NCBI GenBank assembly: GCA_003614675.1
Contig: ML002400.1
Coordinates: forward strand, 1 to 33,906
DNA from: Dimargaris cristalligena
Taxonomy: Eukaryota
Direction of reading: 5' to 3'
DNA: 33,906 nt
Shown: positions 2,168-29,327 of the stretch, one piece after another
How the letters are laid out: each line of letters opens with the position of its first letter
Position numbering within the stretch: position 1 is the first letter of the stretch
Made by a program: the position numbers and the translations under genes
Notes under the pieces: generated by a model
Told to the model about the DNA's origin: nothing
The model's database searches: none
The model's input: the letters and a program-made list of their open reading frames with translations, nothing else

Positions 2168-5100
2168 CTATATCGAACTATTATCGTTGGGTATTAAAGG
2201 CGGGGCTCCATCTAAAAGGGAGAGGGTGCTATGACGCGAATCTAGGGAGGTGTCTTTTGGAGGAAGTGGGGATATGAAGCCAGTATTGGCCATGTAGGCT
2301 AAACAGCTGTCCATCACATCAGAAATAGGCGGACAGTGCACATTATTGGCTTGACAAAAGGTCTGAGTATGGCTCGTGTCAATGGCCGGAAAATCCATCA
2401 TCTCGGGTAAACTGTCCAAAACAAATAAAAGCAGTGGATAGAGGGCATTGTCGACTGGCCTTTTGACAGCTGCTTTCAGATAGTTACACCAGTTGGTATA
2501 AGCTACGGCATCAAGGGTAAACCCAAGCATGCGGATATGATCAAAAATGTTGTTGTAACTAAACCGAGTGGCCATATCAATGTGAAAAGTCCCCACTGCA
2601 AGGGCATCGGGATTAATTGCAACTTGCACTATTACTTCAGCGGCGTAGTCAACTGGACACATAGCCATTGCACTATCCATGGTGGGAGCCTTGCCCAACT
2701 GGATACAGCCCTTGACAAACCGCCATAGGAAATCGTCAGTATTGACCACTCCAGATTGACTTGCTCCCACAATGAATCCGGGCCGAACAATGGTGCAGGG
2801 GTAGCCCCGGGACTGGGCCTCTAATATAAGTTTGTCGGCGACCCATTTGGTCTGATCATAGCCAGCAGGAATACTGAGCCGACTCCCCTCTAAGTTATCT
2901 GATTCCGGAATCCCGATGACTATCCTAGATTGGGCAGTTGGAGTGATATCAGGTGTGGATGGGGGGGACACAGGGAAAGTGTTGTCAGTGGAATATCCTT
3001 CTTTGTTGGATTTGGTCAAGTGGGTAGGATAGTCGTTAGTAAAGACTGATAATGTTGAAATGAAATGGAAAGGCTTAATATGGTGAGTAGTGGCAAGCTT
3101 GAGGGCCTCTAAGGTACCTAATACATTAGGCCCCCGCAGTTTCTCGTAAGGGTGCATCCAGTGAATTTGGGCCCCATTATGGATCACGACATCGACTATT
3201 TCGGCTAGGGACTTCCATTCAACCTCAGTGATGCCCAAATGGGGCTGTGCTAAGTCACCAACAATAGCTCGGATCTGCTGGCTACCATAACCAACAGACC
3301 AGTTCACCTTAGAGTTAGTCTGGATATGAAAGTCAGGTTCAAATTCTGTGATATCCCACTGGGACTGCCATACTAAGCGATTGATACAGCTCGTCTTGAT
3401 TCGGTCAAAGGCCCGATTGGGGTCCTGAGCCCGAGCCAGACAGTATACAGTGGCTGAAGGGAAATGGCTTAACAAGTTCGTCAGTATAAATGTCCCTAGA
3501 AAGCCAGTGGCACCGGTGAGAAAAAAGGTGGGTGCTCCACCGGACCGGACCTGATCAGGGAATATAAATGATTTGAAGGCCCGATTATTGTGAGTGTTTA
3601 TTAATAGGGGCGGAAGTTGATGGACGAGAGTATCGAAATCAGTTGAATATGTATTAGCTGGTTCAACTAAATTCAAGTCTGGAGTACTGTTGGTATTCAA
3701 GTCCGCTGAATATGCCTTTTGTGAAGAGACTATCTGCGCTATTTTCTCGGCAGGTGGTATATTCACAGTGTTTGTTGTGCCTGCCAACATTAATCGGTCA
3801 ATTTCATTGGCCATACCGTAGATGGTGGGCTCTCGGAATACTAAACTGTGTGGAATATTGGCCCCAAAAACCTTTTGGACTTGAATTGCCAGTCGGGTAG
3901 CTAAAATGGAATGACCCCCCATACTGAAGAAGTTGCTATGTAGCGGGGTTGCTGAATCCAGATCAAGTATATGTTGCCAAATTTTGTTTAGAGAAATTTG
4001 GGTTGGGCTGTAGTTTACCAGGTGATTGCTCACATCGGAAATGCTGCTTATATCCCTCATGGTAGGGGCATATGGCCTGTACTTTTCTGAACTTTGAAAT
4101 GCCTTGTGACAAGGTAAGGATAGCTTGTCTATCTTTCCATTGGCATTCACTGGGAGGTGGGTCAGAGGTACAAAGCAACTAGGGATACTATAGCTGGGTA
4201 ATGTATTATTTAGGCTCTCTCGGACTTCGGATACAAGGGAATATAGATAATTATCTGGACCCTCATCCTCACCTATTATCAAAGGTTTCCCAGAGCTCTC
4301 CCTAGTTGTATAATTGGATGGACCTGTAAATTTTGGTACAATGTAGGATACCAGGACCTGATCGCCATTTGTTGCATGACTCAATATTGTTGCACTTGTC
4401 CGAATCTGGGGGTGATGTAAAATAGTACTGTCAATTTCGTCAAGTTCAACCCGGAATCCCCGGATTTTGATTTGGTTGTCTGTACGCCCTAAGCATTGAA
4501 TTTGGCCATCTGGTAGCCATCGACCAAGGTCACCAGTGCGGTATAGCCTGCCCTGACCAGTGAAAATGTTTTTAATGAATTTGACTGGATTGAGATCAGA
4601 ACGGTTAATGTAGCCTTGACTAACACCAATCCCACCAATGTAAATCTCACCCACTGCTCCAATTGGTACCAGTTGAAGGTAGGCGTCCAAAATATAACAT
4701 TCATAGTTAGCAATTGGACGTCCAATAGTAATTATTCCATTATGGGGCATTTGGGCCCAGTGGCTGATAATAGTGGTTTCAGTAGGGCCATAGCAATTGT
4801 AGAGAGTGACAAAGGGTGCCCATTTTTCTGCAAGTTCTAAGGGAAAGTGCTCGGCACCACACATTAATGTTCTAAGCTGGGGATAGTAATGGGGCTCAAT
4901 AGATGAGATGATTGATACAGTAAGGTAGGCGCACTGTACTGTTGGCAAGACGGTTAAAAAAGTATCCTCATAAAAAACCATGGTTGAGCCATTTAAGATA
5001 AAGGAAAGTACAGTGAAGAGATAGGCATCAAATCCCGGGGGATTCACACTTAATACTCTCTGAGCTGGTTTCCAAATATCTTTAAAGGAGTCATTACAAA

Positions 5101-8100
5101 TGATATTAGCCAAACTATTATGCTGAACCATAACACCTTTTGGCAAACCCGTAGTTCCAGATGTAAAAATAATATAAGCCAAATCATCTGGTTGAATGGG
5201 GTGTACTGAGCTATAGCAAATAGGCTGGCTATTGTCAAAAGTAAGATTGGCCATGGATACTGCAGTAGGCCATTCTGCATCCGCAACTGATGCATTCACA
5301 ATGTGTGAACATTGGGCAGTTTCCACCATGTATTTTTGTCGACTAAAGGGTAGGGTGCTGTTAACTGGTACATAAATGGCACCAATAGACCAAATGGCCA
5401 ACATGCAAATAATTGTATTTGAGTGGTTATCCACGATCACTGCCACTTTATCTCCCGGTTTAACAGGTACTTGTTGCAGGTAGCAGGCCAACCCTTGGAC
5501 ATTGTGGGCCAACCCTGTGAAAGTTTGTGTTTGATTCCCTAACTCGATAGCAATATAGTTGGGATACTTCTTAACTGTAGTAAAAAATATGTCCAAAACA
5601 TTCAGTTTGGGATTTTTAAGAATGGTGGAGTTGGGTGGGCCATGCACAAAGTTCCTTAAAAGCAATTGAACCTCGGTTGGACAAGCCAATTGTGCACTTT
5701 TAATATACTGCCCAGAAGTGAATACATACTTTATATAAGATGTAAAGTTTAGTAGTAAGCTCCGGGCTGTCTCATATTTGAATGTAGCTGGATTATACCG
5801 GAGTTGCAGCTGGGCTGCTGTATTTTGGCGATCAACGACTAGCTGTAAGTCATATGGAAAAAGTGTTTGGGGTTGTTTGGAATGGATGATTTGTACGCCG
5901 GGTCGATTAGAATTGAAATTCAGGGGTCGGAATAGCACACCTATTCGGGCCATACCTGCAACTCTATAAAACATTGGAAGCCCCAGTTCAGCCCCCAGGG
6001 TTTCATTGTTTGGGACTGTATGCACCATGGATACCTGGCATTGCTGGGTAAATCTATGAACTAACTCTGAAAGTGTATTAGGTAAGCCACCAGTGTATCG
6101 AATTGGGTGGGACATATTTGTTGAAATTGAAGTTGTGGTTGATAATTCAGTAGGGCCTAGATCATATTTGTTAAAATCAATGATAATATCCTCCTGACCT
6201 GAAACTCGGAGAATAAAAGCAGTGAATACAGAAACCCAAATAATACTTTCACACACTGACTCGCAACTGGTAAAACTCGATAGCATTATATCCAGATCCT
6301 TGTCAAGGTTGGTTTCCACCACTGAACACTGTAAGTTAGTTGAATATGTTTGTATATAGTCAGCATATAGAGAGAGCTTAGTTGGGGGGTCATGGAGAAG
6401 GGAGGACCAGTAATTAATATCAGCCTCAGATGATTGATGGTTGTTATTATTAAGCATAACATGTTGTGGCTCAAATATATCTAATTTCTGGTTATCAATG
6501 CCTTGTTTCAATAATTCGGCCAGATTCTGGAAGAGCATGCTGTTTCCTACAATCTCATGAACATAGAAGTTGATTGCTGATTTAACTCCACCTGCAGGGG
6601 GCTGGGCAAATTGGTAGAGAGTAGCTTGAATAAGTATGCCCTGTTGAAGATTAAATTGCACTTTTTCTGAAGTAAAATCTATATACTCACTTTCCAGGGA
6701 CCCAGGCATGGCATACTCAATAACTTTGATTTGGACATTAGGGAGAATATGACAAGCAAGTATACCACCAGAGGTAGTAAAGCAGCTACGGAGTGCCTCA
6801 AATTGGGCCACTAGTTGATTGATGGATTTTTGAATATATGTGATGGCAATAGTTTCTGTTGATGTAAATTCACAGCAGTAGTAGAAAGTTCTTAGTGTAT
6901 CTGTGTATTTGCTAAGAGACCATATATTTTGTTGATAATCAGTGATTGAAGGACTTGATAAGACTATACCTAGTTGTTGAGGGGCATCAGTGATGAACCC
7001 TTTGCTTTTTAGATTCCACTCAGCTTTAAGTAATTGGCTAGTAATAACTTGAGCTAAGGACTGGAGGTTATTACAGTTAAATATATCCCTGATAGTAAGT
7101 ATTATACCATATTTCTGATGAATACAGAACTGGAGTCTCTCCCACTGGGCAAGTGTGAGTTTTAGTTGGGACTGAGGAATAGGTGACATTAAGTAGTCAG
7201 AGTTTGACTTGAGAGGCAAGCATAGTTCATTAATAAATACGGTTAGCCACCATTCTGTCTCTTTTAATGCTCCAACTTGGTCTAAGGGAAGGCTTGCGAG
7301 ATAAGCTTGGGCAAAGTATTGAACTCTATGATAAGATTTCTCTGTATAGTCAGCCACATGGGGGAATCCTTTAGTTGAAATAATGGCATCAGGAAAAAGT
7401 ACTTTTGGAACTACAGGAGGGGCTATTGAAGTCTGCAGACGAGCCAATTCTTCCTTAGATACATGGTTAACTATTACTACTAATTGGCTATTTGGCAATA
7501 CGAGGACCTGTGGACAGATGGCCCCAACTTGAAGTAGGGCCTGTTCTAATACCCCAAGATGAGCCCGTTGGTCTTGCAGATTCACCCATTGGGATTTAGG
7601 GCCCAGAATGCAAATGTGGTTATCTGAATTATAGTAGGCAAGACCCAAGTCACCAGTTTGTTGAATATTATTGGAATTTCTTATGTTGGCAAACCCTAGG
7701 TAACCAGGTACCCCAGGTGGGCAAGGATGGCCCCACTGATCAAAAACTACTAAAGAATTATCTCCAAATGGACTATCCATAATAGGTAGGGTGAAGGTAG
7801 CTAATTGATCACCAGGTACCAGACAGTACCCATGAAATAATGATACATTATAGACTAGACAGAGAAGTGATGGTTTGTCTAGATTAATGAGATCTGATGG
7901 AATTGTATGGGCCAAGTTAACAAGTACCAGTTGATCCATATTATGGTATTCATGGGTGAATCTATGGGCAGGAGTAATATGGCAATAGGCTGGGTTGATA
8001 TTATGTGGTGATCCTACAGTTACACTAAATAGTAGGCATGAAAGAATGAGCCAAGTGACTTCTAGACTCCCTAGGTCCAGTGAGGGATCAAAAGTATACC

Positions 8101-11100
8101 CATTCCTATTACTAATATATGACTCAGCTAATGCAAGGGTATGCTTGATATTCACAGTGTTAATAGTAAGCAGAATGGGCCCAGTTGGGCTCCAGCCAGT
8201 TATAAATTGTAAACTAATACCTGAGGTATTTGATTTGGTCATATGATACTGATTAAGCACTGTATCATTAACAGGTATACTGGTACTATCAGTTGGTATC
8301 TTGATTAGGTTAGTATTCTCAGGAAGGTAGGTTAAGTACTCATTAGGGAAAGAATCTGGGCACCACACTACATGGGGCTTAGATAATGCTAAATCCTGGG
8401 CTATCTGTTCAATATTCCTAGTGTTTGATTGAACTATCAGGTAGGCATCCATTTTGATTGTTGCTACTAAATATACAAATAACTGGCTAATATCTCCCAC
8501 AAGGGCTATTATAGTTGGTGGAAAATCTGTAATTATAGCATTAGTACATACTACTAGGGAATTGGCCAGGAGGTCAAGCTGACTAACAGACAGGTCTAAT
8601 TCATTACTCTGGTAGACTAAGTGGTCTGGATGGCTGTGGATAATACCATCCCAAACCTGAGCCAATGATTGGGAGCCCAGGGCAGAAGAGGGATTACAGG
8701 TATTTTGCTTTAGGCCTATAGCTGATGGCTGTGCTATTGGTTTGCTAAGAGTAAGCTGATCAATAGGGGTTTGGGGATCACATATTATTATTTGCTGAAG
8801 TACTACCTGAACCATATTCACAATCTGAGTAATAGAGGTTTCAGAGTAGATATTTGTACTATAGAAAGCTTTCACTTGAATGGAGGAGGGCTGTTCTACA
8901 AAATTGATAGCTAGTGGATATTGAGTAAACTCATGAATATAAATGTCTGATAGGGTTAATTCATGGGTTTGGTTAGGGACTAGGTTGGGAAAATTTTCAA
9001 ATCCCAGGAGTGTATGAAATAGGGGGCCTGTATGGCCCAAATCACCCCATTGGGCAATATCAATAAGTTGGGAGCACTCAAAAGGAATCATATCCACCTG
9101 GTCCTTATAAAGTGACTCAAGCCATGACCCAAGTGGAGAACTACCCAATTGAGCCCTGTATGGTACTGTATTGGTACAGGGTCCAATTACTGTATCCATA
9201 CTAGGTATATTCAAATTTCGGCCAGATATAATCATACCAAAAGTTACATCATCCTGGTTAAGTAGCCGGCCTAATACTAAGGCATAAGCAGCCTGGAATA
9301 GGGTTGCAATTGATATACCAATACTTTGAGTAGCTTGGATTAATTGGGCTTTGGAAATATCCAGAAGTGTTGAATATACTGTGTGACCCACTGGACCAAT
9401 ATACTTAGGGTATAGTAAGGGTGCTGGTGTAATTATGGCATTATGTAGATAGCGAGCCCAAAATACCTGTGCCAGTGCTGGATCTGACTGGGATATATAT
9501 TTCACAACAGTTGGAAAGTTAGTCTGCGGTGGGGGCACAGCTAGCATATGGTTATGATAGGCTACCATCCACTCCTGGAGGAGTAGGGGTAGCGACCAAC
9601 CATCCATTAATGAGTGGTGAATTGTGATAATAATCTCATGGACTTGGCTATTAGTAGTAGGGAACACAAAGTTACGGACCATATGTTCCTGGAGGGAGAA
9701 TCCCTGCCACCGGTTCTCAATAAAAAACACCTCAAGGGAATCAAGAGGCTGGTCTGAAATAGTCCAGGAAGTAGATAAAGAGGAAAGCACCACTTGGAGG
9801 AACCCCTGGGATAGAGTATTGGGAGATTCTATAAAATATGTACGCAGAGGAGAGTGCTGGTTAGCCACAGAGGCCCAGGCCTGGACTAGTCGATCTACAT
9901 CGAGTTGTCCAGTTAGTTTGATTGCCATTTGGATAAGGTAGGCAGACGGGTCTGAAGTCAGGTTCATTAGGAGGCCACCCTGAATGGTAACACATGGTAG
10001 TATGTCTTCAACCTGCGCAAGGGAAATGCCTCTTTGGTGGATTTGTGTCAAGATAGTCTGGAATCCAGTGTCAGAGAGAGCCAAATGTGGGAAGTCATAC
10101 TTGGTAAGCAAAGGTTCATTGGTCATATTCCCTGACTGTATGCTCATACTAGTAAGTTCAGCCAGGTTCTGATACCAGCTGGACATAACTTTGGTAATAA
10201 CATCACTGTGGTATACCTGGGGGTTATATTCCATAATTAATCGAAGGCAGTCACCAACTATTGTAGGCATGGGATTGAGGTCAAAAACAATGTAGTCCTG
10301 GGGGGCAAAGTCATGTAGTCCAAATGAATCGGACCACTCAATAGAAACTGGATCACTACCCTGGTGAGTACTTGAGTTGCTAAACTGGCCAAAGTAGTTG
10401 AACTGGACATCCATTCTCTCAGGGGTTTTAGCCATTAGTTTACGCTTCTCATCAACTTTTACACCTGGCATGTATTTGACTACTAAGTAGGGGAACCCTT
10501 TGGCCGGGATTCTCTGTAAGGCTTCCTTGGTATATTGTAATAGCTGCAAGAGTGACTGTCCTGGTTGAATTTGGAGTACTAGTGGATAGACGGAGGTAAA
10601 CCAGCCTACAGTGCGAGTAATATTTTGATCAGTGGTCCAGGGCTCCCGCCCATGGCCCTCCATACAAAAAGATATTTGGCTGACTCCAATGGTAGTAGAA
10701 AAGGCCTGGGCAAATGTGGCTAATAGTATGTATTGAGGGGTAACTCGCCATTGGGAGGCTAGTTGAAACAGAAGAGTGTTAGTAGACTTAGAATCAAACT
10801 CCAAAGATGCAGAAAGACGGGCTGCAGGATACTTCTCAGTACTTATCTCCACTGGAGGTAGTAGAGCATAAATATCGGGAATTGGGTGGTTTGGATCCAC
10901 CTGCATTGGCCAAACATCTGCGGAGAGAGTACTGCAGTAATCTGCCAATAGGTTAGACCAGGTTTGGAAAGACATTGTCTTTGGTGGAAGGGGTTTATCG
11001 AGAAATAGTGAATTTAAATCCTCAATGAGTATCCGCCAGGAAACCAAGTCCACCAGAATGTGGTGAATAGTAAAGAAAAGTTGGGTGTTCGATGGTTCAG

Positions 11101-14038
11101 CTGGGTCATGGATAATAGCCGCAGCAACTACCGGGCCAGTGGTAAGGTTGAGACTCGATTGGACCTGTAGAATAAAGTCCGAGTAGTCATCCAGGTCCAC
11201 AATTTTCTCTAATACCAGAAGGTCATGGATTGTGGCCGCCTCTGTTGGGATTGACTGAGTCCAACTCTGGCTATTTTCACTGAGTTGGAACCTTGCCCGG
11301 AGAATATCATGGTGGTTAAGTAAGGTAACAAGGGAATCAGTGAGTTTAGAGTGGGATAGTGGGAAATGAGGGTCAACCTGCAAATAAAAGGACTGGTTAA
11401 AATGACTGGGAGTCTTAAAAGGAAGATTGGTAAACCAGTGCTGAATGGGTGTGAGAGTTACATCACCCTTAACTTGGCCCTGGTAAGCAATGTCAGTATC
11501 CGAAATGGCACTGCTTTCTTGCTGAAGGTACAGAGCCTGTTCATTTAGTTTAGGGTACTGGTAGACTAGAGGTATGGTAAACTGATAACCCAGCTGTTGG
11601 AATCTGGATACAAGTAGAATAGCTGAGATTGAGTCACCACCAATCCTAAAGAAATGATCAGAAGTTCTAATTTTATCGGCGCCCTTCTGTAAAACCTGGG
11701 CCCAGGCCTTTTGGAGATCGTACTCGATAGATGAGAGTGGCTTTTCATCAAATGGTGATGTAGATGATTGGTTTACAAGGTGGTCGATTGGTGGAAGGGC
11801 CCTGCGATCTAATTTGCCGTTAACAGTTACCTGAAACTCTAACACTGGTACTAGTATTTGAGGGACCATCTGCTTAGCCAGACGACTGGAAAGGAAGTTT
11901 TGAAGGGAGACAGAGTCTAGATCGGCCGGGCTAGTATACAAAACAAGGGTATCTTGGACTATCGTTGCCACACAGTTTTTTAATCCACTGAAGCTGCCTG
12001 CCACGTGTTCAATTTCCTCGAGCTCGATGCGAAACCCACGCAGCTTAACTTGGTTGTCAATGCGGCCCAGAAATTCGAGTGTACCATTGGGGAGCCACCG
12101 AACACGATCACCAGACCGGTAGACCTGGCCGGGGCCATGGGGGCTAGTAATGAATTTAGATTTGGTTAATTCAGGTAGATTTTGGTAACCGCGAGAAAGA
12201 CCAGATCCTCCAATAAGCAACTCGCCAGGGACACCCACCGGCACTAATTGAAGTTGGTCATCCACCACAAAGTTGGTGACATTACTAAGAGGTCGGCCGA
12301 TCGAAATCTCATCACCAGGACTGATAATAGCTATGCTACTAAAAATGGTGGTTTCGGCCGGCCCATACCCGTTGATTAAGGTGCAATGGCTCGCCCATTG
12401 TGCCTGGAGTTCAGCTGTAAAGGGCTCCCCACCAATTGTAACTGTCTTCAGATTTCGAAAATCAACGGGGTTAAGCCGGGAAAGAAAGGAAGGGGTAAAA
12501 TCCGCTGTATCAACACTCTGTAAGTCCGCGACTATATTGGTAGTAGGGACAATCACGGTCCCCCCGGTACAAAGCCCGTAAAGTACTTCGAATACCATCC
12601 AGTCAAAGGCAACCGACATCATCAATATTGACTGGCGAGTCCCGCAATAGAATTCCATTATAGAGGGATTAGTAATAACGCTGGCCAGATTTTGGTGCTC
12701 AACAAGTATACCCTTGGGACGCCCTGTGGTACCAGAGGTATAAATAACATAAGCAAGGTCGTGTCGGGCTGATGGGTGTGGTTGGAAATCCGATGGATCT
12801 GAGTCGGGTGTTAATAAAGTGAAAGGGTCCACAACTAACGCAGGAATACAAGACTGGGGCGGTATAATGCAATAGGTCGATTCAGCGACAAGCACTAATT
12901 CCGCACCGCTATCCTCTAGAATATACTCAACACGTTCGACAGGGTATTCCGGGTCGATAGGCACATATGCAGCACCGGATTTGAGTACTGCAAGCAGTGC
13001 GATGACGTAAGCGAACGACTTGGAAATCAGCAGGGCAAATCGAGTCTCGGGTCGGGCACCGTACTGAGTGACCAGAACCTGAGCCAGATTGGAACTACAC
13101 GAATTTAGCTGGTGATAGGTCCATTTATATTGACCATGGATGACGGAGATGCTGTGAGGAATGTCTAGAGCTCTGGCGCAGAAAATCTGATGCACAGGCT
13201 GGTCCACGCACCGGATGGGTTCGTTCACGCGGGAGAAGGCCATCAAACGGACCCGTTCTTGCTCACTAATCCAAGGAATATTGCAGATTGATACGGGCGG
13301 CTGACTAGGATCCTTCACAGGCCAGACCCGGGTCACAGCACCTAAAATGGTACCCAATTGACTGGCGAATTCCTCAATGGCAGAGACCCGGAAGGTATTG
13401 CGCGAATACGTAATGTTCAGCACGGAAGAGCCATCCACAGTGGCAAGGTCAATGAGCAATTTAACCCCCATTGTGGTCACCATTGTGGAGGGAAAGGCTT
13501 CGTGATTGGTGGCACTAGAGTAGCTTAAATCGCCGGAGGTACAGCTGGATGCATGCCCGGGGACTCCGGATATACTACACCGTAGGATAACCTCGGGCGA
13601 TAGCGACGACTTGGAGCTGGAATTTGATGATTGGCTGACAGTGCCGTCAAAGACTATGGGCGGTCCCTGGCACTCATCAACGGCTTCGATTAAGGCGGCA
13701 ACTTTGATATCGGGGTCGACGTTGAACAATACCCAGACCAGGGAATCCCGAGCGAAGTTGGAAATCTTGATGGGTCCGGATAAGTAGCCGAATGCCACCT
13801 CTGGCTGGTTATAGTAGCGGCTCAGTAAGATGGCGAGAGAAGCCAAGGCCAACTTGCTAAATTCGGATACTGGATAAGGCTGAATCGTTTCGGGTAGAAG
13901 CTTGTGTTGGTAGGTTTCGATACCATGCTGGACCGAGCGCGGTTTGCCAAGGGGCAATCCGATCTTCGGATAAAACTCGGCAGGGACAGGCGTAAATAAG
14001 GCCGCATCATTAGTGGTCTGGTTGGAGTGTTGGGACAT
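2168..14038 (-). CDS. Multimodular nonribosomal peptide synthetase, ~3956 aa, intronless: partial C-A1-T1-E-C-(degenerate A-T-C)-A3-T3-R
   Basis: One continuous ORF; first ATG at 14038 (MSQHSNQ). A1: YVIYTSGTTGRPKG, NGYGPAETT, YRSGD, QVKLRGFRIEL, NGKLDR. T1: FFRIGGDSI. E: HHILVDLVSW, EGHGRE, RTVGWFTSVYP. C: HHSLMDGWS. A3: YIIFTSGTTGLPKG, YGPTETT, LYRTGDL, NGKIDK. T3: FFSMGGHSI. R: TGATGFLG, GYDQTKWVA. Confidence 0.95.
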   Translation of the reverse strand: MSQHSNQTTNDAALFTPVPAEFYPKIGLPLGKPRSVQHGIETYQHKLLPETIQPYPVSEFSKLALASLAILLSRYYNQPEVAFGYLSGPIKISNFARDSLVWVLFNVDPDIKVAALIEAVDECQGPPIVFDGTVSQSSNSSSKSSLSPEVILRCSISGVPGHASSCTSGDLSYSSATNHEAFPSTMVTTMGVKLLIDLATVDGSSVLNITYSRNTFRVSAIEEFASQLGTILGAVTRVWPVKDPSQPPVSICNIPWISEQERVRLMAFSRVNEPIRCVDQPVHQIFCARALDIPHSISVIHGQYKWTYHQLNSCSSNLAQVLVTQYGARPETRFALLISKSFAYVIALLAVLKSGAAYVPIDPEYPVERVEYILEDSGAELVLVAESTYCIIPPQSCIPALVVDPFTLLTPDSDPSDFQPHPSARHDLAYVIYTSGTTGRPKGILVEHQNLASVITNPSIMEFYCGTRQSILMMSVAFDWMVFEVLYGLCTGGTVIVPTTNIVADLQSVDTADFTPSFLSRLNPVDFRNLKTVTIGGEPFTAELQAQWASHCTLINGYGPAETTIFSSIAIISPGDEISIGRPLSNVTNFVVDDQLQLVPVGVPGELLIGGSGLSRGYQNLPELTKSKFITSPHGPGQVYRSGDRVRWLPNGTLEFLGRIDNQVKLRGFRIELEEIEHVAGSFSGLKNCVATIVQDTLVLYTSPADLDSVSLQNFLSSRLAKQMVPQILVPVLEFQVTVNGKLDRRALPPIDHLVNQSSTSPFDEKPLSSIEYDLQKAWAQVLQKGADKIRTSDHFFRIGGDSISAILLVSRFQQLGYQFTIPLVYQYPKLNEQALYLQQESSAISDTDIAYQGQVKGDVTLTPIQHWFTNLPFKTPSHFNQSFYLQVDPHFPLSHSKLTDSLVTLLNHHDILRARFQLSENSQSWTQSIPTEAATIHDLLVLEKIVDLDDYSDFILQVQSSLNLTTGPVVAAAIIHDPAEPSNTQLFFTIHHILVDLVSWRILIEDLNSLFLDKPLPPKTMSFQTWSNLLADYCSTLSADVWPMQVDPNHPIPDIYALLPPVEISTEKYPAARLSASLEFDSKSTNTLLFQLASQWRVTPQYILLATFAQAFSTTIGVSQISFCMEGHGREPWTTDQNITRTVGWFTSVYPLVLQIQPGQSLLQLLQYTKEALQRIPAKGFPYLVVKYMPGVKVDEKRKLMAKTPERMDVQFNYFGQFSNSSTHQGSDPVSIEWSDSFGLHDFAPQDYIVFDLNPMPTIVGDCLRLIMEYNPQVYHSDVITKVMSSWYQNLAELTSMSIQSGNMTNEPLLTKYDFPHLALSDTGFQTILTQIHQRGISLAQVEDILPCVTIQGGLLMNLTSDPSAYLIQMAIKLTGQLDVDRLVQAWASVANQHSPLRTYFIESPNTLSQGFLQVVLSSLSTSWTISDQPLDSLEVFFIENRWQGFSLQEHMVRNFVFPTTNSQVHEIIITIHHSLMDGWSLPLLLQEWMVAYHNHMLAVPPPQTNFPTVVKYISQSDPALAQVFWARYLHNAIITPAPLLYPKYIGPVGHTVYSTLLDISKAQLIQATQSIGISIATLFQAAYALVLGRLLNQDDVTFGMIISGRNLNIPSMDTVIGPCTNTVPYRAQLGSSPLGSWLESLYKDQVDMIPFECSQLIDIAQWGDLGHTGPLFHTLLGFENFPNLVPNQTHELTLSDIYIHEFTQYPLAINFVEQPSSIQVKAFYSTNIYSETSITQIVNMVQVVLQQIIICDPQTPIDQLTLSKPIAQPSAIGLKQNTCNPSSALGSQSLAQVWDGIIHSHPDHLVYQSNELDLSVSQLDLLANSLVVCTNAIITDFPPTIIALVGDISQLFVYLVATIKMDAYLIVQSNTRNIEQIAQDLALSKPHVVWCPDSFPNEYLTYLPENTNLIKIPTDSTSIPVNDTVLNQYHMTKSNTSGISLQFITGWSPTGPILLTINTVNIKHTLALAESYISNRNGYTFDPSLDLGSLEVTWLILSCLLFSVTVGSPHNINPAYCHITPAHRFTHEYHNMDQLVLVNLAHTIPSDLINLDKPSLLCLVYNVSLFHGYCLVPGDQLATFTLPIMDSPFGDNSLVVFDQWGHPCPPGVPGYLGFANIRNSNNIQQTGDLGLAYYNSDNHICILGPKSQWVNLQDQRAHLGVLEQALLQVGAICPQVLVLPNSQLVVIVNHVSKEELARLQTSIAPPVVPKVLFPDAIISTKGFPHVADYTEKSYHRVQYFAQAYLASLPLDQVGALKETEWWLTVFINELCLPLKSNSDYLMSPIPQSQLKLTLAQWERLQFCIHQKYGIILTIRDIFNCNNLQSLAQVITSQLLKAEWNLKSKGFITDAPQQLGIVLSSPSITDYQQNIWSLSKYTDTLRTFYYCCEFTSTETIAITYIQKSINQLVAQFEALRSCFTTSGGILACHILPNVQIKVIEYAMPGSLESEYIDFTSEKVQFNLQQGILIQATLYQFAQPPAGGVKSAINFYVHEIVGNSMLFQNLAELLKQGIDNQKLDIFEPQHVMLNNNNHQSSEADINYWSSLLHDPPTKLSLYADYIQTYSTNLQCSVVETNLDKDLDIMLSSFTSCESVCESIIWVSVFTAFILRVSGQEDIIIDFNKYDLGPTELSTTTSISTNMSHPIRYTGGLPNTLSELVHRFTQQCQVSMVHTVPNNETLGAELGLPMFYRVAGMARIGVLFRPLNFNSNRPGVQIIHSKQPQTLFPYDLQLVVDRQNTAAQLQLRYNPATFKYETARSLLLNFTSYIKYVFTSGQYIKSAQLACPTEVQLLLRNFVHGPPNSTILKNPKLNVLDIFFTTVKKYPNYIAIELGNQTQTFTGLAHNVQGLACYLQQVPVKPGDKVAVIVDNHSNTIICMLAIWSIGAIYVPVNSTLPFSRQKYMVETAQCSHIVNASVADAEWPTAVSMANLTFDNSQPICYSSVHPIQPDDLAYIIFTSGTTGLPKGVMVQHNSLANIICNDSFKDIWKPAQRVLSVNPPGFDAYLFTVLSFILNGSTMVFYEDTFLTVLPTVQCAYLTVSIISSIEPHYYPQLRTLMCGAEHFPLELAEKWAPFVTLYNCYGPTETTIISHWAQMPHNGIITIGRPIANYECYILDAYLQLVPIGAVGEIYIGGIGVSQGYINRSDLNPVKFIKNIFTGQGRLYRTGDLGRWLPDGQIQCLGRTDNQIKIRGFRVELDEIDSTILHHPQIRTSATILSHATNGDQVLVSYIVPKFTGPSNYTTRESSGKPLIIGEDEGPDNYLYSLVSEVRESLNNTLPSYSIPSCFVPLTHLPVNANGKIDKLSLPCHKAFQSSEKYRPYAPTMRDISSISDVSNHLVNYSPTQISLNKIWQHILDLDSATPLHSNFFSMGGHSILATRLAIQVQKVFGANIPHSLVFREPTIYGMANEIDRLMLAGTTNTVNIPPAEKIAQIVSSQKAYSADLNTNSTPDLNLVEPANTYSTDFDTLVHQLPPLLINTHNNRAFKSFIFPDQVRSGGAPTFFLTGATGFLGTFILTNLLSHFPSATVYCLARAQDPNRAFDRIKTSCINRLVWQSQWDITEFEPDFHIQTNSKVNWSVGYGSQQIRAIVGDLAQPHLGITEVEWKSLAEIVDVVIHNGAQIHWMHPYEKLRGPNVLGTLEALKLATTHHIKPFHFISTLSVFTNDYPTHLTKSNKEGYSTDNTFPVSPPSTPDITPTAQSRIVIGIPESDNLEGSRLSIPAGYDQTKWVADKLILEAQSRGYPCTIVRPGFIVGASQSGVVNTDDFLWRFVKGCIQLGKAPTMDSAMAMCPVDYAAEVIVQVAINPDALAVGTFHIDMATRFSYNNIFDHIRMLGFTLDAVAYTNWCNYLKAAVKRPVDNALYPLLLFVLDSLPEMMDFPAIDTSHTQTFCQANNVHCPPISDVMDSCLAYMANTGFISPLPPKDTSLDSRHSTLSLLDGAPPLIPNDNSSI
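2260..3530 (-). other. Terminal thioester reductase (R) domain, Lys2/alpha-aminoadipate-reductase-like (approximate bounds)
   Basis: FLTGATGFLG Rossmann motif, HNGAQIHWMHPYEKLRGPNVLGT, YxxxK (GYDQTKW), RPGFIVGASQSGVVNTDDFLWRFVKGCIQLG, DNALYPLL. Confidence 0.9.
3800..5600 (-). other. NRPS module 3: intact adenylation domain plus T domain (GGHSI) (approximate bounds)
   Basis: Core A motifs present (GAIYVP, TSGTTGLPKG, FDA, YGPTE, GEIYIGGIGV, YRTGDL, QIKIRGFRVEL, LPSYSIP, NGKIDK). GGHS is the T type normally followed by C/R/TE. Confidence 0.9.
5700..8660 (-). other. Degenerate internal A-T-C module kept in frame (approximate bounds)
   Basis: A remnants: FITGWSPTGP in place of YTSGTTGxPKG, DQWGHPCPPGVPGYL, QWVNLQDQRAHLGVLEQAL; no NGK lysine motif. 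The T-like helical bundle lacks GGxS. The C-like domain has HEIVGNS in place of HHxxxDG. Confidence 0.8.
8780..11460 (-). other. Epimerization domain (about 10150-11460) followed by a DCL-type condensation domain (about 8780-10020)
   Basis: E: LTPIQHWF, HHILVDLVSW, MEGHGREP, RTVGWFTSVYP, FNYFGQF. C: IQGGLL, HSPLRTYF, HHSLMDGWS, DDVTFGMIISGRN, IGPCTNTVP. The preceding T1 has GGDS, typical of a T before E. Confidence 0.9.
11560..13200 (-). other. NRPS module 1: intact adenylation domain plus T domain (GGDSI) (approximate bounds)
   Basis: LKSGAAYVPIDP, YVIYTSGTTGRPKG, AFD, NGYGPAETT, GELLIGGSGLSRGY, GRIDNQVKLRGFRIELEEIE, NGKLDR, FFRIGGDSI. Confidence 0.92.
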
Positions 14039-14202
14039 TTGTAGCAAGGGAAATGGGAAGGTTGAAATATTCAAACGAATACCGAGGTTTGGGCCGGTGG
14101 AAAAACTGTAGCGATTATTGGCACGAATTGCACAGAGTGAGAATGGAGTGTTCAGTAGTTGTGGTTGACTAATAGGCCAATGGTTGACGATTTCGGGTGA
14201 TT

Positions 14203-19880: not shown

Positions 19881-22640
19881 TTAACGCACAGTGCTAGTCG
19901 TCTTGTTGGCTTGCTCGGCTCTTTTGGCCATTTCAACCGCCTGGCGATTACTACTGGATGGTCTGCGGTGGAACGCATCGGAAATCTTTTCCTTAAACCG
20001 CTGGAACCCGCTACTCTTACGACGATGGTCGAGGTAGTGGTTGGCCTGTCCGTGACCAGTAGTGCTGGTGGTCGCATTGCTAGTCTGAGGGGCAGCCGAA
20101 CTACGTTGTTGCGGTTGGGGCTGCATCTGGGTCTGTTGTGGGGGGACGCCACCCGTGGTCACCGGGCGCTGGGTTTGGGGGGACGGGCTGGGTGGGGCTA
20201 GTTGCGGGGATCGGGGGTGGGCGGTATTGGGCTCCTGGGGTGGGCCCTCGCGAAGGGCTTCCTGTTCCGACATGTAACGTGAGTCGTTGTCATGGTCGGC
20301 CGCCTGCTTCTGGTAACGACGTTCGGATTTCTCGCGGTCACCGGGGAAGGGGTGGGAATCCAGGGTAGTACCCGGTGGGTGGGTGTCATCCCGGTTCCAG
20401 TTTTCGTCAAAAGACGTGCCGGAGGGGGGGTAGTTGTGGGAAATGGCGGTGCCGGGGGGCGGTTTATGCTCGGGGTCATTCCGATCGATAGGTGCGTTAT
20501 GGTCCAAGCCATGTCTAATTTCACTCTGCTCGTGGTATATCTGCTCCGAGTGGGCGGCGGGGATGGCCGTTCCTGGGGGATGGCGATGGTGAGTTTCGAT
20601 GCCTGCCTCTTGGGCATCCAAGAGGTCCTGGTAGCGCTCAGCACCCATAGGGTGCATTGAAGGAACAGCGGTTCCTGAGGGATGGCGGTCGTGGAGGTAG
20701 CGTTTGTGGCGACGCCGTTCCTCCCGTTCATACATGCGGATACCCCCCGTGCCCTGAAGCCCGTAAAGATCGCTGGTACTACCCCTGGAAGAGATGGACT
20801 CGGAGTCGGACCGGAGGGAACTGCCGCCCCCGATGCCGTAGAGGTGACCGGTGGAGCGCGGGTCTAAGTTGTTTCCCGGGCGCTGGTGAGGTAGGGCGTG
20901 CGGAATATAAGGACCCTTACCACCCGCAATACCGTATTTATACCCCTCGCTATTGGGGTTGGGGTGAAGCGCATCTTCAGGTGGCACGCAGGTGCCGACT
21001 CCACGGGCACCTGCGAGGCCGTAGGTATGGCCCGAGGAGAAACGGTCATCGTAACAGGTGAAGGAGTTGTTGCTGGTATTACGCCGGATGCTGCTTGCGG
21101 GGTCTCCCCGACGGGGGGCTAGGTTGTGGATAGCCAGCCCCTGGGTACCGAGGGCATGGGTAGCGCCCTCGGCTTCCTCCTGGACATTGCCCTCGGAATC
21201 GGTGATCTGAATCCTACTGGGGGCATCCGGGTCGGCCACGGGGGCGGCCTTGGAATCAATACCCACGCCCTGGCAATCGACCACCGGACTGGCGGCGGTT
21301 TCCTGTTCGTCGTTGGGCTGGGCGTGGACGGCGCGACCGGGGCCAACCGGAATCTGAGGGGAATGCACTCCCCCTCCCATACTGTTGCTACTGCTGTCGG
21401 TGTGCAGTGATCGATCGGACTGACGGACCGCAATGACCTCTGGTCGCTCCGCTTTATTGGGACGATGGTCCGATAGGGCCTCCCGGGGCTGAGTCGGGTA
21501 ATTATAGACATCATCCTGGACTGAAGGTGATCCTCGGTCAGACCGAGGGTGGGCGTAGTTGCCGATGGTGTCGGCCAGCCGATGGGTTTCCGGGTCGGAT
21601 TGTATATTGGCCTTGGGCTGCTGGTCGGCGGAATGTGGAGCGTTACTGGAGCGGGTGACCCCGACGGCTGATGCGGCGGCCGCGGCACCTGCGGTGGCCA
21701 TTCGATCAGAGGTATTTGCTAGAGACCTGCCACCCCCCGTCATTATTTGGGCAGCTTTGGCGACTTTGATCTTTTCGCCAAGAGTGGCTTGGCCGGTGGC
21801 GACGTGGGCGGCGGCTTTGGCCGTAGTGGCCACGTTAGCCGCGCCTGGCCCATGCGCGAAACTTAGCCCAGTGGCGGCTGCGGAAGCACCCGCGGGCTTG
21901 CCCGACTGGCTGACCACCTGGGCCGTCTTTTCGTACGCGGTCCGCTGCACACCCCCGGTGTTCTGCTCCGACTGGGGCAAGCGGGGGTTTTGGGGTACCG
22001 ACGACGAGGACGATGGGCCACCCATCATGGGTCCTCTGGAGACCTGGGCGGCCCCGGGCATAGCCTCCCGGGAGGCTCGACGGGTTTCCTGAGCGGCCAG
22101 GCCCGCCGCATTTGTCATCTGGCGATCACTGCTGGATACACTAGCCACACTGGCCTGGGGCCCGGATTGGATAGGGCTGCTGTAGTCACCGATGGTATCC
22201 GACTCTTGGCGCTGGGGGAAATGGCTGTTACTTGACATGGGGTTGCCGCTATGGGCCAACGTAATGGCCTCGGGACTCGCGGCGCTGCCCTTGGACCGGT
22301 AGCCAAACCCACCGGGAACATCGCGGGTGGAGGTGAGTTGCTCCCCATTGGTGTGGTGCGGGGCCTTGCGCTGAGCGACATCATCTTCAGTATTTGATGT
22401 CATGGTACAGTGACACTGGTTTTCATCGCAATCACAGCGGTGGTGGGCCAGGGGGGAGCTCACATGAGGGCTATAGTGTTCGGGTTGCTTACCGCGGCCG
22501 GTGGCGGTGGTGGTCGCCTTGGGCAATTTGTTCTGCCCCATGGGTACGTAGTTGGAAGCGTCGTAACTCGGATCCTCGACATTGATCGGGTTGGACTCGG
22601 AGGAGCCGGTGCCCATGAAGTACTCCAGAATCTTACTCAT
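19881..22640 (-). CDS. Hypothetical 919-aa hydrophilic low-complexity (likely disordered) protein with short internal repeats
   Basis: Long ATG-initiated ORF matching a GC-rich island, rich in S/G/A/P/H/Q, with YG[LI]xG x4 and [HPY]P[PS]GT x5 motifs. No recognizable folded domain. Confidence 0.8.
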   Translation of the reverse strand: MSKILEYFMGTGSSESNPINVEDPSYDASNYVPMGQNKLPKATTTATGRGKQPEHYSPHVSSPLAHHRCDCDENQCHCTMTSNTEDDVAQRKAPHHTNGEQLTSTRDVPGGFGYRSKGSAASPEAITLAHSGNPMSSNSHFPQRQESDTIGDYSSPIQSGPQASVASVSSSDRQMTNAAGLAAQETRRASREAMPGAAQVSRGPMMGGPSSSSSVPQNPRLPQSEQNTGGVQRTAYEKTAQVVSQSGKPAGASAAATGLSFAHGPGAANVATTAKAAAHVATGQATLGEKIKVAKAAQIMTGGGRSLANTSDRMATAGAAAAASAVGVTRSSNAPHSADQQPKANIQSDPETHRLADTIGNYAHPRSDRGSPSVQDDVYNYPTQPREALSDHRPNKAERPEVIAVRQSDRSLHTDSSSNSMGGGVHSPQIPVGPGRAVHAQPNDEQETAASPVVDCQGVGIDSKAAPVADPDAPSRIQITDSEGNVQEEAEGATHALGTQGLAIHNLAPRRGDPASSIRRNTSNNSFTCYDDRFSSGHTYGLAGARGVGTCVPPEDALHPNPNSEGYKYGIAGGKGPYIPHALPHQRPGNNLDPRSTGHLYGIGGGSSLRSDSESISSRGSTSDLYGLQGTGGIRMYEREERRRHKRYLHDRHPSGTAVPSMHPMGAERYQDLLDAQEAGIETHHRHPPGTAIPAAHSEQIYHEQSEIRHGLDHNAPIDRNDPEHKPPPGTAISHNYPPSGTSFDENWNRDDTHPPGTTLDSHPFPGDREKSERRYQKQAADHDNDSRYMSEQEALREGPPQEPNTAHPRSPQLAPPSPSPQTQRPVTTGGVPPQQTQMQPQPQQRSSAAPQTSNATTSTTGHGQANHYLDHRRKSSGFQRFKEKISDAFHRRPSSSNRQAVEMAKRAEQANKTTSTVR

Positions 22641-23037: not shown

Positions 23038-23918
23038 GCAAGCAGCTGGGCGGTGGGGCAAAGCCATTGCTTTATATGTGACCAGGCGAGGGGCGCCAAT
23101 GGGTTTCAGACTTTCCACCCACGGCCCGTGATTTGAGCAAGCCAAATCCCTCGAACCCAGCGCCAACCCCGCCAGTTGAAAGGGCGGCTCATTGTTCAGC
23201 CCGTAGCCGGGGGAATGGGCGTTATCACGATTTCCTTATCTCTCTCCTGTTTGATGTTATCCGGAAGCGTATTTGGTGATTTATAAGCTGGGCGGTGTGC
23301 GAGGAAAGGGGATCGGCAAGAGAGGGCTTATAAGCTGGCAAGCTACGCCGGCAACTCGCACCTTCCGAAATCTACCCAATGACTCGAGTCGGGTCCCCCA
23401 GCAGACCACGCTTGGCGCGACTTGACGAGGGTGTCACGTTGCTTGGGCTATATGCACTCATGATCCTGGGCCAACCTCGGAAAATAAATATGCGTCACTG
23501 TGGGGCTGTCTTTCCATTGAATGGCGTCACTGGAAGAGCATGGGAAGGGGGGTTCCTCCCCAGTGATCCTCTATTTCGGGATTACCCACCCATACGGTAC
23601 TACTACGGAGGGGCATCATGCCCCACTTGTATGGGTTGGATTCGTAAGCATCGTAGGGAGTCTCGTAAAACCAGCCGTTGGCTATCTCGTATGCGTGCGG
23701 GGTCTTATTTTGGCCCCATTTTATGCAGTGCTTCGATACGAAAGATAGGCCCAGTAGATACTTCTTATTGGCCTGCCAAGGCCCTTCTCCCTCCCACGCA
23801 TCTCCCTTGGCGTTTGTTAACTTCCCGATTCGTTCCGGTGCCTCTTTCTTATGTTTTATTCTCCGTTGGTTGCATTGCAAAGGCGCCGCGGAATAACCTT
23901 GACCCTGGCCCACCCACC

Positions 23919-27386: not shown

Positions 27387-29327
27387 TCAAGTCTGGGTAG
27401 GGCGCAGTTGCGCGCTCTGTTTTAGAATGGCGTTACTCCGAAGTTGACCACAAGCCGCCATAATATCTATAGAGGGAGAGGGGGGGTAAGACCATGCAAT
27501 TAGCATTATATTATTAGACATTATGGTTAATAAACAATCTGGCGGTATGGTGAAGCGGTCCAATAGACAGGGTGACTTGTCCAACAAGGTGAGTCGGGGT
27601 TTACACTAACGGGATCGACTTTTAGATAGACGTTTGGGCCAATGGTACCCCATATTACCTTGTCCTTTGGGCCACCGGATGGTTGCTTGGATCCCGCGCT
27701 CCTTAAGGATGTTAGCAAACCGCTCAATTTGGGCGTCATCAGAGCTCTTGAATCGAGTTCCGGGCCACGGGTTAAACGCACTAATGGAGTGGCGAAGGCA
27801 AGCCATTGTAAAGTGGTTGGAAAAAAACGAAGTGTTGTGTATTGCAGTGGTGGGTGTATTTCGAGGTTAGAGCCAGTCGATCCAGACTATATTTTAAATA
27901 GGTGGAGATAGAGGCATGGTTTACGTGGTATCAAGGACCACCTAAAAGACCCCCAGTTCAATTTGAGATATGTGCTTGGGTGGGTTGTCATCATATGGTT
28001 CCAGTAACTTACATGAGGTTAACATGGGATGGAAGGGTTGATATTAGCTTCACCAGCTGCTTCGCCATATCCACGGAGTCGTTGATCCCCTGGAGCATGA
28101 CGTATTCGAAGGTAATGCGCCGGTTATTACGGCCCGCCTCCCGCACAAAATCCTCGCAGGCGCCCAGCAGTTGGGCCAGCGGGTAAGTCTTATTAATGGG
28201 CACCAGCTCATTCCGCAGCTCGTCGGTGACCGCGTGGAGGGAAATCGCCAACGTCACCTCGAGCTCGGAAGCCACGCGGGGGATCAGGGGCACGATCCCG
28301 GAGGTCGACACCGTGATACGGTGGGGACTGAAATTGAGCCCCTTGGGGTCCTTCAGAATCTGTACCGCCGCGCGCAGTTGCCGGTAATTATATAACGGTT
28401 CGCCCTGTCCCATAAACACGATATTCTTCAGCGTTCGGTTCTGCAAATCAACTGGAAATTCCTTAACCTGCCGAATCGCCAACATTACCTGGCCGACTAT
28501 TTCCGCGGTAGTCAAGTTACGGAGCAGCTTTTGGGTGCCCGTGTGGCAAAAGGCGCAGTTTAGGGAACAGCCAATCTGAGACGACACGCACAGCGTTTGG
28601 CGTTCTTCGTCGGGTATAATAACGGCTTCGATCTTCTCGAGACCTCGTCGCGCAGTAGCAGCAGCCGTCGTCGTGGACGGTTGGCTAGGGCTACCGCTCA
28701 GGTCAATGAGCAGCTTGGTGGTATGATCGACCCGGGAAGTCTGGGTCTGTACTACCGTGCCCGGTGTGAAGGAATAGTGGGCAGCAATGCGCTGGCGTAG
28801 AGATTTGGAGAAATTTGTAATCCCGTCTGCCGTGGTGACCCCTGTACATTGACAATGTAACAATAACATAATGATAAACCAGCGGATCAAAACATAATGT
28901 TAATAACTGGATCGTATAATACCCCCTTGGGTAAATGTATGGAACTTGCGACAATTCAGTGGTGCAATCGCAAATACATATTGGTAGGCTTGTTGTATGA
29001 CCTACCTTGAGCGTAGAGCGAGTGCCACAGCTGGTCCATTCGATATTTAGGGACCTTGCCCACTGCCTGGGGCAGAGTTTCGCTCAGCTCGTCATAGGTG
29101 AGACCGTATATATTTGTCCGAGGCAAATCGTCCAGAGAAGCTGACTCTGACCGGAGCGTACTGGCAGTAGAGGAGGAGGGTGAATGGGGAGGCCTAATTT
29201 CCGCTGGGGCCGAAAAGGCTCGATTAAAATTTAAATTAGGGAATCTCCGGTCCTGACTTAAAAGTAGAATCGGGCTGGACCAAGGGCCCCATTGGGCACG
29301 ACGTACATGGCGGCCAATTAGTGACAT
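27387..29327 (-). CDS. rlmN: RlmN/Cfr-family radical-SAM RNA methyltransferase, 4 exons (29327-29006, 28841-28013, 27780-27659, 27466-27387), 450 aa, probable mitochondrial leader
   Basis: TLCVSSQIGCSLNCAFCHTG (CxxxCxxC), RNLTTAEIVGQV, FMGQGEPL, ITVSTSG, LAISLHA, ITFEYVML, VNLIAFNPWPG, GQDIMAACGQL. Three GT-AG introns (164, 232, 192 bp) splice in phase to 1353 nt. Confidence 0.9.

Follow-up and report, generated by a model that had tools for sequence, protein, structure and literature searches.

Introduction

Non-ribosomal peptide synthetases (NRPSs) that end in a reductase, such as LgrD, MxcG, AusA and MxaA, share the terminal order condensation, adenylation, carrier and reductase domain (...C-A-T-R) with the gene described here, and NAD(P)H-dependent reductive release is expected in each case. 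Fungal peptaibol synthetases and the peramine synthetase PpzA are likewise NRPSs with a terminal reductase. The other close system is alpha-aminoadipate reductase (AAR, Lys2; family TIGR03443), an enzyme of lysine biosynthesis whose reaction product is an aldehyde. We analysed a 33,906-nt stretch of DNA from Dimargaris cristalligena (contig ML002400.1 of assembly GCA_003614675.1, positions 1 to 33,906; hereafter the window), whose minus strand carries a multimodular NRPS gene with a reductase end. The termination module of this NRPS is very probably a chimera, in which an adenylation (A) core of the Dimargaritales NRPS type has been joined at the A8 hinge to the C-terminal adenylation subdomain (Asub), carrier (T) and reductase (R) domains of a Lys2 duplicate from its own lineage, and which would release its product reductively.

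D. cristalligena is described as having a lineage-specific expansion of 27 NRPS genes in the available text of Ahrendt 2018 (PMC6784888), and high NRPS numbers across Dimargaritales are noted in that of Reynolds 2023 (PMC9866270). The accessible portions of Ahrendt et al. 2018 and Tabima et al. 2020 (PMC7466969) treat A domains only, with no Lys2-derived terminus. The accessible portion of Bozhuyuk et al. (bioRxiv 10.1101/2022.12.02.518901) describes a natural breakpoint inside the T core motif of bacterial NRPSs; the likeness to the present case is that recombination within a conserved motif gives working hybrids and that a terminal T-R can be transplanted, but the window's junction lies at the A8 hinge and its donor is an enzyme of primary metabolism, not a bacterial NRPS. 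Domain swaps among monomodular adenylate-forming reductases are described in the available part of PMC8070225.

Reductase-terminated NRPSs and recombination between NRPS domains are already known; what is unusual here is the primary-metabolism donor and a splice that creates a hybrid adenylation domain. A full-text literature search, with the supplementary trees of Ahrendt 2018 and Tabima 2020 outside its scope, found no report of Lys2-derived NRPS termini, and none appears in the portions available of PMC2823734, PMC9365243, PMC8070225, PMC9866270, bioRxiv 10.1101/2020.08.21.262279 and bioRxiv 10.1101/2022.12.02.518901.

Domain organization of the NRPS

The NRPS is encoded by a single uninterrupted open reading frame (ORF) at window 2168-14074 on the minus strand, which comprises 3968 codons and a stop and has its first ATG at codon 13 (window 14038). 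Given the base composition of the window, a run of 3968 codons would lack a stop by chance with a probability of about 1e-96. Across the whole protein, Pfam scans detected two adenylation stretches (PF00501, 448.6 bits), two carrier stretches (PF00550, 83.3 bits) and three condensation stretches (PF00668, 399.1 bits), and these A, T and C domains follow one another in the modular order of an NRPS. From the N-terminus, the order is A1, T1, an epimerase (E)-like C domain, C2, an A-like region that has probably decayed, C3, the A3 core, a Lys2-derived Asub, T3 and R. The features, all on the minus strand, are as follows.

11795..13207 (-), aa about 290-760: A1 adenylation domain (Pfam AMP-binding), with an ordinary NRPS-type Asub that lacks the insert given below (tree, alignment)
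11495..11722 (-), aa about 785-860: T1 carrier, FFRIGGDSI (Pfam PP-binding)
10148..11470 (-), aa 869-1309: condensation-family domain with HHILVDLVSW (Pfam Condensation, 179 bits)
8747..10009 (-), aa 1356-1776: C2 condensation domain, HHSLMDGWS (Pfam Condensation, 168 bits)
7055..8737 (-), aa 1780-2340 (561 aa): A-like region, probably the decayed module 2 (no Pfam family)
5720..6946 (-), aa 2377-2785: C3 condensation domain, with VHEIVGNS replacing HHxxxDG at window 6539-6562 (Pfam Condensation, 62 bits, weak)
4517..5650 (-), aa 2809-3186: A3 core of NRPS type, GFDAYLF and GRWLP (alignment, tree, BLASTP)
4412..4516 (-), aa 3187-3221: junction interval, A8 motif and hinge (alignment, identity profile)
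4085..4411 (-), aa 3222-3330: Lys2-derived Asub with the A10 lysine, NANGKIDK (Asub tree, motifs)
4238..4330 (-), aa 3249-3279: 31-aa insert within the Lys2-derived Asub (alignment)
3779..3997 (-): Lys2-derived T3 carrier, FFSMGGHSILATRL (T tree, motifs)
2270..3538 (-): Lys2-derived thioester reductase R, GATGFLG and GYDQTKW (PF07993, TIGR01746, trees)

HHILVDLVSW, in the condensation-family domain at aa 869-1309, resembles an epimerase-type motif. The A3-T3-R module spans aa 2809-3935. Its A3 core scores 329.6 with TIGR01733 (cut-off 317.4), and its R domain exceeds both curated cut-offs (PF07993, NAD_binding_4, 221.6 bits versus 20.1; TIGR01746, 301.3 bits versus 213.35). The R domain aligns over its full length with the solved R domain of MxaA (4u7w, 215 bits), and its GATGFLG and GYDQTKW motifs align with the same motifs in 4u7w and in Lys2. 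In R domains, the GxxGxxG motif binds the nucleotide and the YxxxK motif is catalytic.

An initial annotation, made from the sequence alone, had proposed that the C-terminus of this NRPS was grafted from Lys2 and had quoted seven motifs in its favour. A motif search of the ORF located all seven, together with GFDAYLF in the A3 core, where that annotation had placed them: the hinge motif RTDNQIKIRGFRVELDEID at aa 3197-3215 (window 4430-4486), VSYIVPK from aa 3242, LVSEVRESL from aa 3280, HNGAQIHWMHPYEKLRGPNV at aa 3632, GIPESDNLEGSRLSIPAGYDQTKW at aa 3721, NTDDFLWRFVKGCIQLG at aa 3778 and DNALYPLLLFVLDSLP at aa 3875. The predicted insert of about 30 aa between VSYIVPK and LVSEVRESL is present, with a length of 31 aa, and alignments agree that A1 lacks it. 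It is not, however, a general mark of Lys2: the insert measures 28-31 aa in four Dimargaritales Lys2 proteins and 8-34 aa in 32 others, compared to 21-31 aa in four chimeric copies from D. cristalligena (the window's and three paralogues described below). The ends of four Mortierella NRPSs have 4-5 aa at this place, and 19 further NRPS rows mostly 1-8 aa.

Relatives of the two halves of the termination module

We searched each half of the module as a separate query against the same protein-length band (720-2293 aa) and compared the best 120 proteins. With the Asub-T-R half (aa 3197-3968), 113 of these 120 contain the Lys2 pocket motif HDP[IVL]QR[DN], the remaining seven are N-terminally truncated models, and the matches are alpha-aminoadipate reductases wherever they are named. 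With the A3 core, the motif occurs in 0 of the best 120. The likeness of the Asub-T-R half to Lys2 goes far past anything that chance would give. A motif scan found it nowhere in the 3968-aa window protein, in agreement with the earlier prediction that an HDPIQRD-type pocket is absent.

The best full-length matches of the Asub-T-R half are the Lys2 proteins of Dimargaritales (Dispira simplex, 46%; Tieghemiomyces, 45%; D. cristalligena, 44-47%; D. xerosporica, 41%), compared to 34-39% for the other fungal Lys2 proteins among the best 120; fragments of D. cristalligena NRPSs match at 47-51%. The best matches of the A3 core are Dimargaritales NRPSs (D. cristalligena protein P0247, 52%; D. xerosporica, 42%; D. 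verticillata, 41%; Dispira parvispora, 41%), and further NRPSs, most of them bacterial, follow at 29-38%. BLASTP puts the identity between the A3 core and Lys2 cores at 22-25%. The A3 core is of ordinary NRPS type, as the initial annotation had held, but the resemblance to A1 that was also noted there amounts to only 34% identity; the nearest relative is P0247 (52%), which has an ordinary Asub. For every part of the window NRPS, the closest relatives are D. cristalligena sequences, and its A1 and A3 cores and C domains belong to the family of NRPSs that has expanded in this species.

The Lys2 equivalog profile TIGR03443 scores 597.9 bits on the window protein, well below its cut-off of 1030.1, and matches only along profile positions 614-1329 of 1390. 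Compared to Lys2, the module is homologous over the full length of Asub, T and R (41-50% identity to Dimargaritales Lys2) and has in common with it the Asub insert, HNGALVHW.YPY, RPGYIVG, NTDDFLWRLVKGC and DNALYPLLHFVLDDLP; the reductive thioester chemistry is presumably also the same. Unlike Lys2, a protein of about 1400 aa in which a condensation-like N-terminal ADA domain directly precedes a Lys2-type A core with an HDPIQRD-type pocket, the module has no ADA domain, no Lys2 A core and no such pocket, and it sits at the end of a multimodular NRPS of 3968 aa, where an NRPS C domain precedes A3. The window protein is not a lysine-pathway enzyme.

No full-length orthologue of the NRPS was found among proteins of 2182-6944 aa. 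The best match in that length band, P0123 (D. cristalligena, 2680 aa), was rejected as an orthologue, being a Lys2 fused to a pentatricopeptide-repeat (PPR) model. The representative search supplied sequences (P0364, P0368 and others) and was not used for ranking, as multimodular NRPSs, in which repeated Asub-T matches add up, dominated it.

Phylogenetic histories of the two halves

In a tree of R domains (63 rows, quick search, mixture model), the window R domain forms a clade with those of three D. cristalligena proteins, P0364, P0003 and P0004 (support 100). This chimeric clade is sister to the D. cristalligena Lys2 (98), within the Lys2 proteins of Dimargaritales (99) and of Kickxellomycotina (95), and the 14 named bacterial R domains lie across a branch with a support of 100. 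The sampled bacterial NRPS R domains are 31-34% identical to the window's and make up a clade of their own. In the Asub tree (77 rows, 88 columns, A8 excluded), the four chimeras fall inside the Lys2 clade (100, stem 1.07) and with Dimargaritales Lys2 (93), and the Asubs of window A1 and of other Dimargaritales NRPSs, P0247 included, are placed among the ordinary Asubs. In the T tree (74 columns), a branch with a support of 99 separates all 33 ordinary T domains from T3, which lies on the Lys2 side. Each of the three domains, in its own tree, is thus located inside the fungal Lys2 clade and not among ordinary or bacterial NRPS groups, which bears out the Lys2 origin that had been proposed. Unlike in bacterial R-terminated NRPSs, the T domain and the Asub also derive from Lys2, and so the A domain is itself a hybrid.

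A careful tree of the combined Asub, T and R domains (36 rows, 613 columns, LG+G4) supports the same placement: the chimeric clade (100/100) is sister to the D. cristalligena Lys2 (100/99), within Dimargaritales (100/100) and Kickxellomycotina (98/92). A clade of Lys2 proteins that excludes the chimeras appeared in 0 of 200 bootstrap trees, and forcing such a clade cost 34.4 log-likelihood units and was rejected by the approximately unbiased (AU) test (p = 0.012).

The A cores tell a different history (59 rows). All 14 Lys2 cores fall in a single clade (100). The A3 core pairs with P0247 as its sister (99) within a group of Dimargaritales NRPSs (99), and a group with a support of 99 takes in the Dimargaritales NRPS A domains, both window A cores and two chytrid A domains. 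The two halves of the module therefore have clearly incongruent histories.

An alternative explanation is that there was no graft, and that the terminal A-T-R represents an old lineage that shares its descent with Lys2 and whose A core has since diverged. Lys2 is indeed related to NRPSs, and a C-terminal R domain is common to several NRPS subfamilies, according to the available text of Bushley and Turgeon (2010, PMC2823734). Yet the tree puts the A3 core amid the A domains of Dimargaritales NRPSs, next to P0247, with a fully supported branch between it and the Lys2 cores, while Asub-T-R lies deep inside Lys2 beside that of D. cristalligena itself, and the AU test rejects a Lys2 clade without the chimeras. 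We consider shared descent of the whole module highly improbable.

Location of the junction

We mapped the transition between the two halves with a 40-residue sliding identity profile. At aa 3101, the protein is 42% identical to its own A1 and 32-40% to bacterial-type NRPS modules, compared to 10-17% to Lys2. At aa 3141-3200, the three references are about equal. At aa 3281, identity to own A1 is 27%, to bacterial-type NRPS modules 32-47% and to Lys2 42-62%, and in the R domain Dimargaritales Lys2 reaches 55-75% versus 30-57% for bacterial-type R domains. The crossover in identity accordingly lies at aa 3140-3200.

The alignment narrows this interval. Up to GRWLP (W is aa 3186), the window protein and its three closest relatives have NRPS-type residues in common and are without the Lys2 A6-A7 insert of about 30 residues. 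From PQIR (aa 3222) onwards, the window protein, P0003, P0004 and P0364 have Lys2 features, namely a loop that is five residues longer and the Asub insert. The junction is within aa 3187-3221 (window 4412-4516), in the A8 motif or immediately behind it; the near-identity of the two parents over this interval limits how finely the crossover can be placed.

The initial annotation had predicted a breakpoint near window position 4490, which falls within this interval, and its proposal of a recombination at the A-domain hinge between an NRPS and a Lys2 duplicate is supported as the probable origin of the module. A splice in the hinge yields one adenylation domain built from two very distant parents. 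As had been suggested, the module would be a natural counterpart of engineered domain swaps, but the exchanged piece is the C-terminal Asub; in engineering usage, an A-subdomain swap usually means a piece inside the A core.

Paralogues with the same junction

The three D. cristalligena proteins that group with the window copy are partial gene models. Each starts in an NRPS-type A6 motif and runs on into a Lys2-type Asub-T-R with the window's junction in the alignment, and over the Asub-T-R part they are 47-64% identical to the window copy. The A10 lysine, the carrier serine motif GGHS, GATGFLG and GYDQ[ST]KW are intact in all four chimeric copies. The common junction argues for a single old graft, followed by duplication. 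The grafted T-R is 50% identical to the D. cristalligena Lys2, compared to 34-37% for the Lys2 proteins of other lineages.

These observations bear on whether the chimera could be an artefact, in which the assembly or a gene model has fused an NRPS with a neighbouring Lys2. Fused models of neighbouring genes do exist in the databases, P0123 (Lys2 with a PPR protein) being an example. Here, however, the junction lies within one open frame and inside a conserved motif. In three public runs from two studies, which may include the window's own source, a single contig per run carries all of window 2168-6100, the junction included, with 0, 0 and 1 differences, and four diverged copies have the same junction. 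At only about 50% identity to the D. cristalligena Lys2, moreover, the grafted part is not the genuine Lys2 joined by mistake. An artefact is scarcely credible.

The P0123 model combines a genuine Lys2 with a pentatricopeptide-repeat protein, and is probably two neighbouring genes merged.

Proposed mechanism of origin and release

We propose that the NRPS arose within the Dimargaritales NRPS expansion and that a duplicate of Lys2 (alpha-aminoadipate reductase) donated its Asub-T-R. A single graft would have occurred on the D. cristalligena lineage, after its split from the other sampled Dimargaritales, and the chimeric module would later have been duplicated and diverged fast. In the present enzyme, the A3 core, which holds the substrate pocket, would select and adenylate the amino acid. 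The Lys2-type Asub would then supply the A10 lysine and the domain rotation that loads the Lys2-type T3, the C domain would hand over the upstream acyl or peptidyl group, and the R domain would use NAD(P)H to release the thioester-bound product as an aldehyde, with cyclisation or further reduction as possible later steps.

Intact catalytic motifs in A10, T and R, together with the descent of these domains, make NADPH-dependent reductive release the likely function of the module. Because Lys2 makes an aldehyde, a peptide aldehyde, possibly then cyclised, is our first guess for the product. We infer activity, cofactor, two-electron chemistry and product alike from the ancestry of the domains and their preserved motifs. 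Should the enzyme prove active, it would show that an A core can function with an Asub, carrier and reductase of foreign origin, a point of direct relevance to where engineers might cut NRPSs.

Several points weigh against this reading. The separate Asub and T trees were computed by quick searches on 88 and 74 columns, and the group forced in the AU test was chosen with the first tree already in view, the hypothesis itself having been posed beforehand. The chimeras sit on long branches (stem 0.32), which could distort their exact place within Dimargaritales Lys2, though hardly their membership of Lys2. In the sliding profile, the Lys2 reference was the database Lys2 of D. cristalligena, taken as a stand-in. 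The regular expression for the pocket motif is not exclusive to Lys2, and also matches four long NRPSs (one of them named as bacterial, three unnamed) among the matches in the 2182-6944 aa band. Within the window protein, aa 1780-2340 contain no recognisable A or T domain and match no Pfam family, and the active-site motif of C3 is VHEIVGNS where HHxxxDG is expected.

The region at aa 1780-2340 weakly resembles A6-A10 of Dimargaritales A domains (best BLASTP match 24% over 217 aa, E = 2e-5). No recognisable carrier serine motif follows it, and Pfam detects only two PP-binding stretches in the whole protein. Module 2 is thus probably decayed, or else non-canonical, and together with the altered C3 this suggests that the assembly line may be impaired or may work non-canonically.

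These features fit an alternative in which the graft is real but the gene is a relic of the NRPS expansion, in the course of decay or having ceased to yield a reduced peptide: module 2 matches no Pfam family, two carriers are detected for three C domains, and C3 scores 62 bits with its motif changed. Against this stand the open frame of 3968 codons, with odds of chance as small as those given above, the intact core motifs of A1, T1, A3, T3 and R, and the retention of the same motifs in three diverged paralogues. We regard a relic as unlikely.

The direction of the event could also be reversed. In that case, the Lys2 duplicate was the recipient locus: it would have lost its ADA domain and A core and gained upstream NRPS modules and an NRPS-type A core in their place. 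The data fix the junction and the two ancestries only, not the recipient locus, and the two NRPS genes that appear to lie tail to tail in the window fit an NRPS-rich locus but are not decisive. Pfam scans reveal no Lys2 remnant, such as an ADA domain, upstream in the ORF, and the neighbourhood consists of NRPS sequence rather than lysine-pathway genes, but both points are weak. The reverse direction is possible but less likely than an NRPS that acquired a Lys2 tail.

Lys2-derived ends in the NRPSs of other fungi

Multimodular NRPSs of Mortierellaceae (P0125-P0127, P0129, P0139 and P0146) also end in a T-R derived from Lys2, in this case the Lys2 of Mortierellaceae. In the quick R tree, the R domains of four of these NRPSs fall inside Mortierellaceae Lys2 (100). 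By their A core and Asub, these proteins belong to the bacterial-like NRPS type. The last Asub clusters with internal Asubs of the same protein (96), and the terminal T with Mortierellaceae Lys2 (100). Identity to the Podila Lys2 leaps from 30-50% to 80-90% exactly where T begins, and the T-R is 70% identical to the Lys2 of M. alpina, compared to 40-49% for the Lys2 proteins of other lineages.

In an NRPS of Calcarisporiella thermophila (P0368, 4345 aa), the R domain is placed beside that species' own Lys2 (99, quick R tree). In the last module of P0368, an ordinary Asub is present in full, and behind it stands a second Asub, partial and Lys2-like, that aligns with Lys2 from just after A8, and the identity profile against Lys2 reaches 56-80% over T and R. 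The graft is 59% identical to the Lys2 of its own species, compared to 39-48% for other lineages.

Like the window NRPS, these are multimodular synthetases with a T-R taken from the Lys2 of their own lineage, and each of the three grafts is most similar to that Lys2. The junctions differ: the A8 hinge in the window, the boundary of Asub and T in Mortierella, and a tandem Asub in Calcarisporiella. Judged by the quick R tree and the identity profiles, from which the Mortierella and Calcarisporiella placements come, this pattern points to independent grafts and to three recruitments in all. It is rather likely that the C-terminal part of Lys2 is a recurrent, portable release cassette for the NRPSs of early-diverging fungi, recruited independently at least three times, each time from the own lineage and with a differing junction.

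If so, these NRPSs record, as experiments of nature, where fusion was tolerated between partners with A cores of only 22-25% identity, and primary metabolism can supply termination chemistry to secondary metabolism. The two further grafts suggest a general route to reductive release in early-diverging fungi, and together the grafts point to uncharacterised peptide aldehydes, or heterocycles derived from them, in the mycoparasitic Dimargaritales and in Mortierella.

Neighbouring open reading frames

Near the start of the window, a 390-aa ORF on the plus strand (64-1236) has a condensation-family domain (HHLVFDLLSVQIV, 77 bits). It converges on the main NRPS gene, the two stops lying 931 bases apart, and has the appearance of the C-terminal part of another NRPS gene, with a start beyond the edge of the window.

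Farther along, a 949-aa ORF on the plus strand (window 23379-26228, G+C 0.58) contains fungal Zn(2)-Cys(6) cluster and fungal-specific transcription factor domains and could be a regulator near the NRPS genes. On the minus strand, a 919-aa ORF (window 19881-22640) lies in a G+C-rich island (0.63 versus about 0.43 around it); Ser, Ala, Gly and Pro are abundant in its translation, for which Pfam gave no family, and several ORFs overlap it in other frames. A 293-aa ORF on the minus strand (window 28009-28890) carries a radical SAM domain (55 bits).

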